Positions 23,708-57,382 of a DNA stretch of 64,000 nucleotides are shown in pieces (position 1 is the stretch's first letter; each line of letters begins with the position of its first letter). Source of the DNA: Escherichia coli (lineage in GTDB: Bacteria > Pseudomonadota > Gammaproteobacteria > Enterobacterales > Enterobacteriaceae); assembly GCF_050920415.1 (NCBI RefSeq), contig NZ_CP169309.1; one strand, given 5' to 3'. The position numbers and the translations under genes were made by a program. The notes under the pieces were generated by a model that saw nothing but the letters and a program-made list of their open reading frames with translations, did not search any database and had not been told where the DNA came from.

Positions 23708-23970
23708 AGTATCACCTCATCAGGTTAACCATCACCACCAACGACGCCAATCGACTGGTGGTGAACTGTGTAAGGTTGGCGTAACCGGCTACTCAAACCC
23801 GGCGCTTCCGAAGAAGCCCTCACACAGCCCACCATAATTTGGGCATAGCCGTGCTTAGCGCACAAAAAAACCGCTTAACGCGGTATGCGTTGAGTAGTAT
23901 CCCGGGACGCCAATCCCGTGTGCCGATTTTGCGGCAACGCACAGAATATAGCGCCGGATAAATCATGTCG

Positions 23971-24519: not shown

Positions 24520-26022
24520 ATGACTCAAACTCCTCTATTACTTGCAATCATATTTTTATTGGTTGTTCTTGTTCTTTATATAGCTGCAATCAAACGCATC
24601 AAAAAAATACAATTAGAATTAAGTGATAGCAATCAAAAAAATGAAGAATACAAATCTCGCTTTGCAGATTATTTTAATGTAGAAGAAGAATGTAAGAAGC
24701 TTATTGAGAAAACAGAGCAAGAATGCTCCATAATAAAAGAAGAATCCCTAAAAGTAAAAGAAAATGCCAATAATGAACTAACAAACACCATTGAAAAAAT
24801 GGATGGTATCAATAAACAAATCCAAGAGCTAAGAAGAACTTATAAAGAGAAGAAAGAAATATATGATAAACTAGTAAGGCAAATTTCTATTTATTCAGAA
24901 GATGTTGAGCTAGCCGAACTAGGATTTTACGAACCTCATTTTAATTTTGAAGATTCAGAGCAATTTAAAAACAAAATAAAATCCATCAGGGATGAACAGA
25001 AATTAATGCTGCGGGATAAAACCCACTCTGGCGCAGTATATTGTACAACCCAATGGACTGTTGAAGGCTCTCGAGCAGAGGGTAAAAAAATGACAGACAG
25101 AAATATCAGGCTAACTACTAGAGCATTTAATAATGAATGTGATGCTGCAATTAGCAATTGCACGTGGAAAAACATCACTAAAATGGAAGAACGCATCACA
25201 AAGGCATTTGAGGCCATAAATAAACTAAACGAGCAAAATCACATATATATAAACACTAAATACCTCAATAAAAAACTTGAGGAATTGTGGCTTACCCATG
25301 AATATCGTGAGCAAAAACAGAAAGAAAAAGAAGAACAGGCAGAAATAAGGGCACAAATGAGAGAGGAGGAGCGTGCACAACGAGAAATAGAAAAGGCCAT
25401 GCAAGACGCAGAGGCAGAAGAGCGCCGTTATAAAAAAGCAATTGAAGCTGCAAGAAAGGAAATGGAAAAAGTTACTGGTGACATGAAGCAGCGCCTCGAA
25501 AATCGCATTGCCGAACTAGAACAGAGTTTGTCGCAGGCTGAATCAAAGCATCAAAGAGCATTATCCATGGCACAACAAACCAAACAAGGTCATGTTTATA
25601 TTATTTCGAACATAGGTTCTTTTGGGGAGAATGTTTATAAAATAGGCATGACACGACGTCTTGATCCGCAAGACCGTGTAAATGAGCTCGGTGATGCATC
25701 TGTTCCTTTTATTTTTGATGTACATGCCATGATTTATTCGGAGGACGCTCCATCATTAGAAAAAAAACTACATGATGTCTTCGATAAAAAGAGAGTCAAT
25801 CTTGTAAATCGTAGAAAAGAGTTTTTCTATGTTACTCTGGATGAGATCAAAGAAGCTGTTAAAAAACACTCTGATTCAGAAATTGAATTTATTGAGACAG
25901 CAGTCGCAAAAGACTTTAATGAGTCATTGGCTATTCGTAATCATGAAAATAAAAAAAGTGACAACAGCAACTCATCAATTATACCTGAGCGAAAAACCCC
26001 AGAGTTTGCAGATGCAATTTAA
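24520..26022 (+). CDS. membrane-anchored coiled-coil protein with C-terminal GIY-YIG/T5orf172-like domain (DUF4041-like architecture); candidate defence moron
   Basis: Track ORF 500 aa: N-terminal TM helix (LLLAIIFLLVVLVLYIAAI), ~300 residues Lys/Glu-rich coiled coil, then GHVYIISNIGSFGENVYKIGMTRRLDPQDRVNELG...EKKLHDVF...RKEFFYV; RBS AAGGAA; strongly AT-rich; opposite strand to flanking phage genes. Confidence 0.8.
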   Translation: MTQTPLLLAIIFLLVVLVLYIAAIKRIKKIQLELSDSNQKNEEYKSRFADYFNVEEECKKLIEKTEQECSIIKEESLKVKENANNELTNTIEKMDGINKQIQELRRTYKEKKEIYDKLVRQISIYSEDVELAELGFYEPHFNFEDSEQFKNKIKSIRDEQKLMLRDKTHSGAVYCTTQWTVEGSRAEGKKMTDRNIRLTTRAFNNECDAAISNCTWKNITKMEERITKAFEAINKLNEQNHIYINTKYLNKKLEELWLTHEYREQKQKEKEEQAEIRAQMREEERAQREIEKAMQDAEAEERRYKKAIEAARKEMEKVTGDMKQRLENRIAELEQSLSQAESKHQRALSMAQQTKQGHVYIISNIGSFGENVYKIGMTRRLDPQDRVNELGDASVPFIFDVHAMIYSEDAPSLEKKLHDVFDKKRVNLVNRRKEFFYVTLDEIKEAVKKHSDSEIEFIETAVAKDFNESLAIRNHENKKSDNSNSSIIPERKTPEFADAI

Positions 26023-26270: not shown

Positions 26271-26573
26271 TCACAGCAAGTTTAAGTTCATATCTCCATA
26301 CACTGCCAACACTCGTTTCATCGCGGCACTCTGGCGACACTCCTTGAAAATCAGATTCGTGCTCACCTTTCCTTCCCGTTCTTCCCTGGTAGCGAACCGG
26401 TAATACACCGTTCGCCAGACCTTACCATCAACGACCAAGATTCCTGCCCGTGCCATTTTAGCCGCAGCCTGATTTATACTGGTTACTGTTGCGCCTGTTA
26501 CCGCAGCAACGTCCTGCGCACAGAAGCTCTTATGCGTCCCCAGGTAATGAATAATTGCCTCTTTGCCCGTCAT
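26271..26573 (-). CDS. ren: Ren protein (lambda Ren-like)
   Basis: Track ORF 100 aa MTGKEAIIHYLGTHKSFCAQDVAAVTGATVTSINQAAAKMARAGILVVDGKVW... Confidence 0.85.
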   Translation of the reverse strand: MTGKEAIIHYLGTHKSFCAQDVAAVTGATVTSINQAAAKMARAGILVVDGKVWRTVYYRFATREEREGKVSTNLIFKECRQSAAMKRVLAVYGDMNLNLL

Positions 26574-27271
26574 ACAGTTGCTCCTTTCAGTCCGAACTTC
26601 GCTTTGATTTCTGCGATCTTCGCCAGAGCCTGTGCACGATTTAGAGGTCTACCGCCCATGACAGGAAGTTGTTTTACTGGTTCAGGTATCGCCTCACCAC
26701 GGTTAATTCGCGCGGTCATACAAGTCAGTTCATCGGCAGCCTTGCGCCGTAATTCCGCATCAGTAAGCGCATTGGCCCGCATGTTCTGATACAGGTTGGT
26801 AACCAGCCAGTAGTGCGCGTTTGATTTCCACGGATAAGACTCTGCATCTGGATACAGGCCACGTTTCCGGCAATACTCGTAAACCATATCAACCAGCTCG
26901 CTGGCGTTTGGCAGCCCGGCGGTAACGGATGCTTCTTCCCGGCACCAGGCAACAAACTGCCCGGGTGATGGCAGGAATGGTCGATTCTGCCGACGGGCTA
27001 CGCGCATTCCTGCGTCAACCTGTTCCATCGTGGTGATCCCGTTTTCCCGGAAAGCCAGAACCCACTGGCGGCGGATTTCGTTCAGTTCGTTCTGGTCCCG
27101 GTTAGCCAGGCTCGCCGGGAAAGTTGCCAGTAACTGGCTGAACACACCATTGATGATCTGCGCTACCTGTTGTACCTGCGGCTTTTCGTCGTACTGTTCC
27201 GGCATGTTGTTGGCGATCCGGCGCATCTGCTCACGGTCAAAGTTAACCATCTGTGCGGCGATGTTTTTCAT
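26570..27271 (-). CDS. P: replication protein P (DnaB helicase loader, lambda P-like)
   Basis: Track ORF 233 aa MKNIAAQMVNFDREQMRRIANNMPEQYDEKPQVQQVAQIINGVF... Confidence 0.9.
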   Translation of the reverse strand: MKNIAAQMVNFDREQMRRIANNMPEQYDEKPQVQQVAQIINGVFSQLLATFPASLANRDQNELNEIRRQWVLAFRENGITTMEQVDAGMRVARRQNRPFLPSPGQFVAWCREEASVTAGLPNASELVDMVYEYCRKRGLYPDAESYPWKSNAHYWLVTNLYQNMRANALTDAELRRKAADELTCMTARINRGEAIPEPVKQLPVMGGRPLNRAQALAKIAEIKAKFGLKGATV

Positions 27272-28287
27272 AAATCCACCCCGTAAATCCAGTCAGTGTT
27301 TGTCAGGTCGAGTTTTGATTTTCCGGCTATCACGCCAGCCTGTTGCTTGTTACGGTTGATTTCGAGTTGGGTCCACTTGTCGCGGAGTTTGGCCGGACTT
27401 AGCACGTTACCGGACCAGAAGTTGTCCTGGCATGCCCAGCGGAACAGCACGCACATGTCGCGGTGGTTACGGCCGTCACGTTCACGCATCAGGCGGATAT
27501 CGTTAGCCCACCCTGCAAAATTCGGTTTTCTGGCTGATGGCGCGATGGTCTTCACCATGTCAAACATCCACTCTGCGGCGGTCAGGTCTTCTGCTGTCCC
27601 CCACCTGCTGCCGCTCTGAATTGCAGCATCTGGTTTCTCCACAGGAAGATCGTTTTCTGGTTGGTCAGAGGATTCGCCAGAATTCTCGGACGAAAAAGGT
27701 TTTATATTGTCTTTTGTTAGTTTGTCTTTTGTGTTTACCTGATTCGGGTAAGTGCCTTTACCTGATTTGGGTAAACTTTTCTTACCTGATTCAGGTAAAT
27801 TTACCTCTTTCAGGTAAACTTTATTTTTCTTACCTGATTCGGGTAATGTTGACCATTCACTGACCACATTATTAATGCCGATATTCCGCCCGCTCTGAAT
27901 AAAAATCCCACGCTTTACCAGAACACTTTTTGCAGCAGAACACTTGTGCGGCAATATCCCGGTCAACTCGGAAAGTTGCTCGTTGCTCACCCAATCCAGT
28001 TTTTTATTAAAGCCATATGTTTTGCGCATGACAGCCAGGAAGACCAGAAGCTGGTGCTGTGTTAATCCGGCCAGCATCACAGCTTCCAGCAACTCATTTG
28101 CAATGCGCGTATAACCATCATCGAGATCTGCCACGCGCGGCTCCTTTTGTGCCGCATCCGGCACTGGAAAATTGAATATCTCAGCAGTGTTTGCCATAAT
28201 TCCTCCCGCAATGAGTGTGTTACGATTTGCACCTGAAAGTCGGTTCTGTTCCCGCAGACCGACTTTCGCCATTTCTGAACCTGTCAT
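27268..28287 (-). CDS. O: replication initiator O (lambdoid O-like; origin iterons inside the gene)
   Basis: Track ORF 339 aa (start uncertain; internal Met at MANTAEIFNF...); C-terminal part resembles the lambda O P-interaction domain; iterons at 27735-27846 lie within the coding sequence. Confidence 0.8.
   Translation of the reverse strand: MTGSEMAKVGLREQNRLSGANRNTLIAGGIMANTAEIFNFPVPDAAQKEPRVADLDDGYTRIANELLEAVMLAGLTQHQLLVFLAVMRKTYGFNKKLDWVSNEQLSELTGILPHKCSAAKSVLVKRGIFIQSGRNIGINNVVSEWSTLPESGKKNKVYLKEVNLPESGKKSLPKSGKGTYPNQVNTKDKLTKDNIKPFSSENSGESSDQPENDLPVEKPDAAIQSGSRWGTAEDLTAAEWMFDMVKTIAPSARKPNFAGWANDIRLMRERDGRNHRDMCVLFRWACQDNFWSGNVLSPAKLRDKWTQLEINRNKQQAGVIAGKSKLDLTNTDWIYGVDL
27698..27846. 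repeat. ori: replication origin: five palindromic iterons (TACCTGATTCGGGTA-like) plus adjacent AT-rich segment
   Basis: Copies at ~27736-27750, 27759-27773, 27783-27797, 27802-27816, 27831-27845; AT-rich stretch 27698-27734 on the downstream side relative to O. Confidence 0.65.
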
Positions 28288-28823
28288 ATTGCCCCCAGCA
28301 TGGTGGTCACCATCGCCATTAATGGACCAGCCAGATCCGGGTCCACACGAAACATCGACACAATACCTTCACTCATTTCCTTCAGTTTCTGGTGGCGTGG
28401 TGCGTTGAGAATGACAGCCTGTTTTGCCTCACTGAGTTCCTTTTCCATTTCAGCCAACCGAGTCATGAAGCTATCCTGCTCAACCAGGTAACCGCGATAT
28501 TCCAGCGGTAGTACCGCCAGAATTGCCGGGGTCAGTTCACGCACGTTATTTCGGTATTTTTCAGAATCGAATTTGTTATCGAGGAAGCGGAACAGCTTCT
28601 GGCGTGCACGGCTGACATCATCAGGGAAATCGATGGTGCCGTCGCCCTGCTCCCGATACTCATTCACAATGAGTGCGGCAACGACATCCTGATTATCTAC
28701 AGCCGACCAGGCGCGGACGGCATCACGGATTTTTTCGTGGCCTGGAGCTTGTTTTGTTTGAGAACGATTTATCACCGCAGTCGGAATAAATCCGCTAGTC
28801 TGTTGGTATGTAAGTGGTTGCAT
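28284..28823 (-). CDS. YdaT-family protein (occupies the cII position)
   Basis: Track ORF 179 aa MQPLTYQQTSGFIPTAVINRSQ...ALIVNEYREQGDGTIDFP...RELTPAILAVLPLEYRGYL; resembles Rac YdaT by recollection. Confidence 0.5.
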   Translation of the reverse strand: MQPLTYQQTSGFIPTAVINRSQTKQAPGHEKIRDAVRAWSAVDNQDVVAALIVNEYREQGDGTIDFPDDVSRARQKLFRFLDNKFDSEKYRNNVRELTPAILAVLPLEYRGYLVEQDSFMTRLAEMEKELSEAKQAVILNAPRHQKLKEMSEGIVSMFRVDPDLAGPLMAMVTTMLGAI

Positions 28824-35694: not shown

Positions 35695-35730
35695 CTGATT
35701 GAATTGTAATGGCGCGCCCTGCAGGATTCG
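35695..35730. other. prophage-host junction (att site overlapping the 3' end of argU); exact core not determinable without the distal copy
   Basis: int stop at 35694 and tRNA 3' end (CCA) at 35710; the second att copy is off-window. Confidence 0.5.
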
Positions 35731-35786
35731 AACCTGCGGCCCACGACTTAGAAGGTCGTTGCTCTATCCAACTGAGCTAAGGGCGC
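35710..35786 (-). tRNA. argU: tRNA-Arg (anticodon UCU)
   Basis: Reverse complement reads GCGCCCTTAGCTCAGTTGGATAGAGCAACGACCTTCTAAGTCGTGGGCCGCAGGTTCGAATCCTGCAGGGCGCGCCA; D- and T-arm consensus, anticodon loop CUUCUAA, 3' CCA. Confidence 0.9.
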
Positions 35787-49007: not shown

Positions 49008-49205
49008 TGCCGGATGCAGCGTGAACACCTTATCCGACCTACTAATCCGGTACCCATTGTAGGCCTGATAAGACGCGTCAAGCGTCGCATCAGGCATGGT
49101 GCGCCGATTACCGGATGCGGCGTGAACGCCTTATCCGACTACCAATCCGGTACCCATTGTAGGCCTGATAAGACGCGTCAAGCGTCGCATCAGGCATGGT
49201 GCGCC
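49008..49205. repeat. REP/BIME element: two tandem ~95-bp units of paired REP palindromes
   Basis: GCCGGATGCAGCGTGAACACCTTATCCGACCTAC...TGTAGGCCTGATAAGACGCGTCAAGCGTCGCATCAGGCA repeated twice with few mismatches, between convergent purK and ybcF. Confidence 0.75.
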
Positions 49206-57298: not shown

Positions 57299-57340
57299 GT
57301 CATACCACACGCCTGATTATTTTTAGCTATGTTGGATTTT

Positions 57341-57367
57341 GCCACGGTTTATACCGTGGCTTTTTTT
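57341..57367 (+). terminator. putative rho-independent terminator after allE
   Basis: GCCACGGTTTATACCGTGGC followed by TTTTTTT. Confidence 0.6.
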
Positions 57368-57382
57368 GTAGTCAATTCAGGT

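Follow-up and report, generated by a model that had tools for sequence, protein, structure and literature searches.

The replication origin of phage lambda lies within the initiator gene O, after the part that codes for the N-terminal DNA-binding domain, and carries four iterons and an AT-rich element with an inverted repeat downstream of it. Phage 82 shares gene P and the right half of gene O with lambda and has its own N-terminal and ori specificity, with five iterons. Work on the phage 82 origin was reportedly done by Moore et al. in 1979 and 1981 and by Grosschedl and Hobom in 1979. The domain logic of these initiators was established with lambda hybrids by Furth and Yates in 1978, as cited in PMC6022878. 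Where Stx phages carry six lambda-type iterons, just four of these are bound strongly in vitro, though the extra ones matter in vivo (PMC7466680).

Here we describe a related region from Escherichia coli, found in a 64-kb stretch of DNA that was analysed as a whole and is referred to below as the window. We consider positions 27664-27846, in the linker-coding middle of a gene O homologue, to be the theta-replication origin of a lambda-like prophage with a probability of about 0.88; the O protein would bind and replication would fire at this site. Judged from its sequence, the arrangement is that of the textbook lambda origin, and the difference is in the specificity class.

Organization of the replication genes and the origin region

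The gene O homologue was recognized by a match to Pfam Phage_rep_O (PF04492, E=8.6e-34) at residues 51-145 of a 339-aa ORF. This open frame (27268-28287, minus strand) runs upstream to an ATG at 28287, and the public databases contain both 309-aa and 339-aa forms of the protein. The true start is probably the ATG at 28197, since GGGAGGA stands 3 nt before it and the resulting protein aligns with Met1 of lambda O. The features of the region, in the order of their coordinates, are as follows.

26570-27271, minus strand: gene P, lambda-type DnaB helicase loader (Pfam Phage_lambda_P, E=1.7e-61)
27268-28197, minus strand: gene O, probable true extent, 309 aa
27271-27696, minus strand: O C-terminal domain, lambda-type, P-interacting by homology
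27664-27691, unstranded: short inverted repeat with an EcoRI site, GTCAGAG...CTCGGAC, 6/7 positions complementary
27697-27734, minus strand: AT-rich segment, presumed DNA-unwinding element, GC 0.25, homologous to the AT-rich region of the lambda ori
27735-27751, minus strand: iteron 5, adjoining the AT-rich region, TTACCCGAATCAGGTAA, start at -19 from the AT box
27758-27774, minus strand: iteron 4, TTACCCAAATCAGGTAA, start at -42 from the AT box
27782-27798, minus strand: iteron 3, TTACCTGAATCAGGTAA, start at -66 from the AT box
27801-27817, minus strand: iteron 2, the first core iteron, TTACCTGAAAGAGGTAA, with the atypical centre GAAAGA, start at -85 from the AT box
27830-27846, minus strand: iteron 1, distal, furthest from the AT-rich region, TTACCCGAATCAGGTAA in O-sense, start 29 bp upstream of iteron 2
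27850-28197, minus strand: O N-terminal origin-binding domain, predicted winged helix (Pfam Phage_rep_O; AlphaFold2 model)

The original prediction, which had been made from the letters of this DNA, described five TACC-N7-GGTA copies at ~19-29 bp spacing inside the O coding region. A pattern scan of the 64-kb window bears this out, with exactly five matches at 27736-27750, 27759-27773, 27783-27797, 27802-27816 and 27831-27845. All five lie inside 112 bp and none occurs elsewhere in the window, for which the chance expectation is 0.36 matches; a count of five was reached in none of 100 shuffles. The full iteron is the 17-mer TTACC-YGAATCA-GGTAA, and a search of the window with up to three mismatches allowed still returned the same five places. 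On the plus strand the start-to-start spacing is 23, 24, 19 and 29 bp. Read in the O-sense direction, iteron 1 (27846-27830) is followed by iterons 2, 3 and 4, iteron 5 (27751-27735) and the AT-rich stretch (27734-27697). The predicted order, iterons and then an AT-rich segment, thus holds in the O-sense direction, O being encoded on the minus strand, and does not hold on the plus strand. The description of the iterons as palindromic is likewise right in part: the 5-bp arms are perfect, whereas the 7-bp centre is asymmetric, so that the palindromes are imperfect. The array of dyad-symmetric iterons, at least four in number, is contained in the initiator gene (27735-27846) and begins 3 bp past the last codon of the DNA-binding domain as delimited here. 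The core iterons are spaced by 19/24/23 bp, compared with 20/24/23 bp for the annotated iterons of lambda, or approximately two helical turns.

The AT-rich region (27697-27734) directly follows the last iteron. The GC content at 27700-27739 is 0.25, compared with ~0.5-0.6 in the C-terminal half of O and 0.33-0.48 on the iteron side. This segment contains two direct copies of ACAAAAGACA, at 27723-27732 and 27708-27717, which form a 15-bp direct repeat. The AT-rich box homologous to that of lambda has the sequence cacaaaagacaaactaacaaaagacaatataaaa, and a box similar to ACAAAAGACA was found after the iterons in nearly every O class examined. The inverted repeat at 27664-27691 is the homologue of the sequence located just downstream of the AT-rich stretch of lambda, the DNA being 82-92% identical there.

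Comparison of the two replication genes with their lambda counterparts confirmed a further part of the original prediction, namely a divergent N-terminal half of O combined with a lambda-like C-terminus and lambda P. The N-terminal domain is 48.7% identical to that of lambda O by tblastn (49% in the domain alignment), the C-terminal domain is an almost residue-for-residue match by BLASTP, and P is identical to lambda P at 227 of its 233 residues; both the C-terminal part of O and P reach ~97% identity. The helicase-loader gene P is adjacent to the part of O that encodes the initiator C-terminal domain, and it overlaps the end of O. At the DNA level, identity to lambda is 40-70% from 28197 to ~27730, rises to 82% over the following 60 bp and is 92-98% from 27669 downstream, covering the remainder of O and most of P. 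This jump at ~27730 places the mosaic junction where the last iteron gives way to the AT-rich box. Strong support for a cis-acting function of this DNA, matched to the N-terminal domain, comes from the comparisons with relatives described below.

Recognition helix and half-site specificity

The AlphaFold2 model of the O N-terminal domain (mean pLDDT 80.7) has the order of elements H-H-beta-H-H-beta-beta, as in a winged helix. Foldseek yielded matches to winged-helix DNA-binding domains only, the best being of the CRP/FNR and MarR types, and these matches are weak (E ~0.02); no PDB fold match was obtained at E <= 0.001, and we found no solved structure of any O relative. The modelled fold is consistent with a winged helix, in which the predicted recognition helix comprises residues 83-95 (PHKCSAAKSVLVK), with the ATG at 28197 taken as residue 1.

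The O homologues that are at least ~63% identical to the window protein in the N-terminal domain keep the TACC-N7-GGTA iterons, with the exception of P22 gp18 (65%), whose sites have a shorter centre (TTTACC-N5-GGTAAA). Other half-sites were found in the remaining classes: TCCCT/AGGGA in the lambda class, which includes phage 21, 933W and representatives from Yersinia, Serratia and Pantoea stewartii; TTAGC/GCTAA in HK97, SEN34 and others; GTCTC/GAGAC in Lelliottia and Morganella; and TTCCC/GGGAA in phi80. The claim that the iterons are distinct from those of lambda is therefore correct, with TTACC-N7-GGTAA in the window and TCCCT-N7-AGGGA in lambda. Among 27 aligned N-terminal domains, the residues with which the predicted recognition helix begins change in step with the half-site, LPHKC being associated with TTACC, HHTH with TTAGC, PVKRC with TCCCT and SRQNV with GTCTC. 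SEN34 and HK97 share both HHTH and TTAGC despite their diverged domains, which are 60% and 47% identical to that of the window, respectively.

As part of the origin explanation as a whole, and with the same high confidence, we regard the N-terminal domain and the iterons as one co-adapted specificity cassette that differs from the lambda one. The same N-terminal domain and iterons are combined with an unrelated C-terminus and a gene annotated as DnaC-type in Klebsiella phage 6 LV-2017, and an unrelated C-terminus is also found in KO-TP1. These combinations show that the cassette is modular, in keeping with the domain logic that the original prediction assumed.

Two unusual O genes were noted among the relatives. 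An O homologue from Enterobacter sichuanensis (locus L016, 1501-2622) has a T5orf172 (GIY-YIG-like) domain as an in-frame insertion that separates the DNA-binding domain from the iteron and AT-box region, which places a nuclease-like domain within the origin-carrying initiator gene. Escherichia phage D2 (OM475427; locus L007, 1414-2435) possesses a frameshifted O hybrid annotated as two O fragments, the first part having a TACC-type N-terminus (99.6% identical) and the remainder being lambda-type with lambda iterons; this gene is either a recombinant or an assembly error.

Prophage context and distribution

Positions 12000-35711 of the window, which include the O gene of the prophage, are 99.8% identical to Escherichia phage PhiR26_1, whose host according to its record is E. 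coli K-12 MG1655. This identity suggests that the replication module works. The match ends at ~35711, next to a tRNA gene on the minus strand (35713-35786), which is probably the integration site.

Upstream of O, the position of cII is occupied by a gene for a 179-aa YdaT-family protein (28284-28823, minus strand), which is 66% identical to phi80 CII and is not of the lambda cII type, and the cro position is occupied by a YdaS-family protein. The matches of these cro-like and cII-like neighbours to Pfam YdaS and YdaT led us to check the Rac/oriJ system as a candidate relative; it was rejected, as Rac YdaU is a DUF1376 protein and not an O homologue. Between the phi80-type CII gene and the O start there is an 86-bp gap laid out like the oop/M3 RNA region in lambda and phi80. 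The segment 28172-28268 (plus strand), antisense to the O start, holds two features that lie in this gap: a pO-like promoter, TTGAAT-17-CATAAT preceded by TG, and a strong hairpin (z = -3.5) at 28234-28268. The gap probably encodes an oop/M3-like antisense RNA, which would leave the first 30 codons of the annotated 339-aa O untranslated. No Rfam matches were found in the O region, and no curated oop family applies.

Additional elements were observed further away. A 500-aa ORF with DUF4041 and T5orf172/MUG113 domains (24520-26022, plus strand) lies just downstream of ren; it is annotated as PD-lambda-1 in PhiR26_1, a defence nuclease that has been renamed SNIPE. Rfam matches to C4 antisense RNA and isrK stand side by side at 23754-23936 (minus strand) within the prophage, and those to STnc480 (57305-57371) and naRNA4 (49062-49140) are located beyond its PhiR26_1-matching part.

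The O gene is common. It occurs at 97.5-100% identity in 15 sequenced phage records, where it is annotated as O without origin features, and the 90% cluster of the O protein has 7825 members. Among 5426 complete E. coli genomes, the TACC-type N-terminal and iteron block was found at a coverage of at least 80% in 2296 (42%), with up to three copies per genome, and the lambda-type block was found in 1324 (24%). Within the set of O/ori classes compared, TTACC-N7-GGTAA may be the most widespread in E. coli prophages, and its range extends from Pantoea to Xenorhabdus and insect symbionts. A 7-kb contig from a metagenome-assembled genome labelled Collinsella sp. carries an O gene and origin that are 99% identical to the E. 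coli type; this contig is most likely a binning contaminant of the actinobacterial assembly.

Conservation of the iterons and alternative readings

A scan of one genome per bacterial species revealed the same iteron type beside related N-terminal domains in Escherichia, Enterobacter, Pseudocitrobacter, Citrobacter, Xenorhabdus, Pantoea, Arsenophonus and Sodalis, and the type is also present in Klebsiella phages. Ten loci could be placed in register, comprising relatives from Enterobacter, Pseudocitrobacter, Xenorhabdus, Pantoea and two Klebsiella phages, together with Citrobacter and the window, and representing seven genera. All ten have iterons starting at -19, -42, -66 and -85 relative to the ACAAAAGACA box, and most of them have a fifth iteron at -114. 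In the insect symbionts Arsenophonus nasoniae and Sodalis endolongispinus the arrays are expanded to 7-10 TACC-type iterons, and their spacing is altered.

Judged from the aligned loci, the array is more aptly seen as a conserved core of four iterons with a distal fifth that is less well conserved. It is conceivable, at somewhat less than even odds in our estimate, that only the four AT-proximal iterons (27735-27817) form the functional core, and that the distal one (27830-27846) is accessory, regulatory or a decaying duplicate. The relatives from Xenorhabdus and Pantoea carry the four core sites only, and in the Enterobacter, Pseudocitrobacter, Citrobacter and Klebsiella phage loci the distal site is altered, with mismatches in the arms or a centre that has diverged. 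The 19/24/23 spacing of the core mirrors that of the four lambda iterons, and the six-iteron origins of the Stx phages, with four strongly bound sites and extra ones that matter in vivo (PMC7466680), provide a precedent for a core of four with accessory sites. The distal iteron of the window may not be a strong binding site. In the E. coli lineage, however, the distal site is a perfect match to the consensus, identical to iteron 5, and the position -114 is kept in five genera, which argues for some selected role.

The fixed register also bears on the possibility that the sites are bound mainly for another purpose than melting, such as titration of O, exclusion or incompatibility between prophages, or transcriptional control across O. 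When cloned, lambda iterons act in trans to inhibit rep-lambda phages (PMC3349717), and some genomes contain up to three copies of the module. We nevertheless judge this explanation very unlikely, as all ten loci, which represent seven genera, hold the iterons in a constant register to the AT-rich element, and the architecture is the same as that of the lambda ori; a secondary role in titration is compatible with origin function. Equally remote is the idea of a relic, in which the origin of a defective prophage has kept its structure and is no longer used. Many E. coli prophages are defective, and Sodalis has an iteron array beside an O gene that contains a stop codon, but in the window neither O nor P is disrupted, the iterons agree with the consensus, and the prophage segment is nearly identical to PhiR26_1, a phage recorded with MG1655 as its host.

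The level at which selection acts can be seen from the substitution pattern. Invariant columns over the ten loci make up 95% of the iteron arms, 61% of the iteron centres and 24% of the spacers between iterons. In pairwise comparisons with the window, the arms of the relatives from Enterobacter, Pseudocitrobacter, Xenorhabdus, Pantoea and two Klebsiella phages are 97-100% identical and the spacers 59-82%, whereas identity at third codon positions in the adjoining N-terminal domain is just 40-54% for the same relatives. The five iterons are translated in two reading frames, as LPESGK, YLKEV, LPESGK, LPKSGK and YPNQV. The contrast between arms and third positions, together with the use of two frames, points to a constraint on DNA, and the alignments lead us to conclude that purifying selection is on the iteron DNA itself and not on the protein. 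A peptide repeat of the LPESGKK-like type, kept for the sake of the inter-domain linker of O, would account for the three of five copies that encode LP(E/K)SGK, but it is hardly tenable given that the two copies in the other frame keep the same DNA arms, that the units are dyad-symmetric, that the arms are conserved including their third positions while nearby synonymous sites are near saturation, and that other O classes swap the half-site along with the recognition helix.

Proposed initiation scheme and its implications

From the anatomy, conservation and covariation of the locus we infer O binding, unwinding, helicase loading and firing, as follows. Dimers of the winged-helix N-terminal domain would bind the 17-bp iterons TTACC-YGAATCA-GGTAA, as suggested by the covariation and by homology. 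Four core sites about two helical turns apart (19/24/23 bp) would be occupied, with a fifth site, probably accessory, lying 29 bp beyond them. By homology with lambda, the bound array could form an O-some-like complex that destabilises the AT-rich element at 27697-27734. The lambda-type C-terminal domain of O would then recruit the lambda-type P-DnaB complex and load the host helicase, as expected from the ~97% sequence identity. At the mosaic junction near position 27730 the specificity cassette meets the AT-rich region, O C-terminus and P of lambda type, and the exchange of modules can be located at the conserved ACAAAAGACA box.

The locus adds a well-delimited origin with a clearly defined specificity class to the lambda paradigm, and it makes origin annotation possible for thousands of prophage copies in E. 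coli, in which the gene is now labelled just 'replication protein'. The relation between the start of the helix and the 5-bp half-site offers a concrete hypothesis for how O-type initiators read their iterons. Should the cassette be one that has never been characterised, that is, different from ori82, the pairs LPHK/TTACC, HHTH/TTAGC, PVKR/TCCCT and SRQN/GTCTC might represent a readable specificity code of O initiators, which we consider doubtful; if such a code were true, cross-activation or interference would be predicted between co-resident prophages with the same cassette. The understanding of lambdoid replication is unchanged by the window origin, which is a common and already sequenced allele.

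Comparison with known origins

The iterons were also considered as repressor operators, and this possibility was rejected, as the cI/cro operator palindrome (ATGGTTGTTGAC...) is unrelated to them. Among the papers covered by a full-text search, none contained these iteron strings, and neither the phage collection nor the literature yielded a sequence of the phage 82 origin or O. The phage 82 origin, whose features as given above would match the locus in full, may be of this very type, in which case the locus would be already known.

Two other phages that had been proposed for comparison turned out to be of different types. Phage 21 carries the lambda origin, with four iterons annotated as ori lambda, and the assignment of phages 21 and 434 to the same class as the window was rejected, both having a lambda-type O. 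In phi80, the initiator gene 15 likewise contains iterons, four in number, and a phi80-like CII and an antisense-RNA gap lie upstream of the initiator gene, as in the window. However, its iterons (TTCCCGAAAACGGGAA, half-sites TTCCC/GGGAA) are 16 bp long and ~21 bp apart, and the relationship between the replication proteins is only a distant one.

Among classical phages, the nearest relative of the N-terminal domain is gp18 of P22 (64.9% identity), which is associated with the similar half-sites TTTACC / GGTAAA followed by the same ACAAAAGACA box. The P22 origin differs in having arms ~5 nt apart instead of 7, four sites, and a DnaB-type helicase, gp12, as a partner in place of lambda P. HK97 and SEN34 share the 5+7+5 geometry and the AT box, and SEN34 likewise has a cassette of its own N-terminal domain and iterons joined to a lambda-type C-terminus and P; their half-site is one base off (TTAGC vs TTACC), and the helix starts with HHTH and not LPHK. 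The Stx phages 933W and P27 have extra iterons on the side away from the AT-rich region, as in the window, and their AT-proximal four keep the spacing 20/24/23, whereas their six iterons are of the lambda sequence and are combined with the lambda O N-terminal domain.

With lambda itself, the window origin has in common its place within O after the N-terminal DNA-binding domain and its 17-19-bp dyad-symmetric iterons, in which two 5-bp arms flank an A-rich centre of 7 bp. Homology extends to the AT-rich element (CACAAAAGACA...) and to the inverted repeat downstream of it, and the O C-terminus and P are ~97% identical. It falls outside the ori-lambda specificity group (lambda, 434, 21 and 933W), as it has no ATCCCTCAAAACGAGGGA sites and its N-terminal domain is 48.7% identical. 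In lambda there are four sites with TCCCT/AGGGA half-sites, whereas the window has five with TTACC/GGTAA; the iteron centre is an A4 tract in lambda and GAATC in the window, and in the absence of this tract the sequence-directed bending may differ from that of lambda. Finally, the gene upstream is cII in lambda, and a phi80-type CII, 66% identical to that of phi80, in the window.
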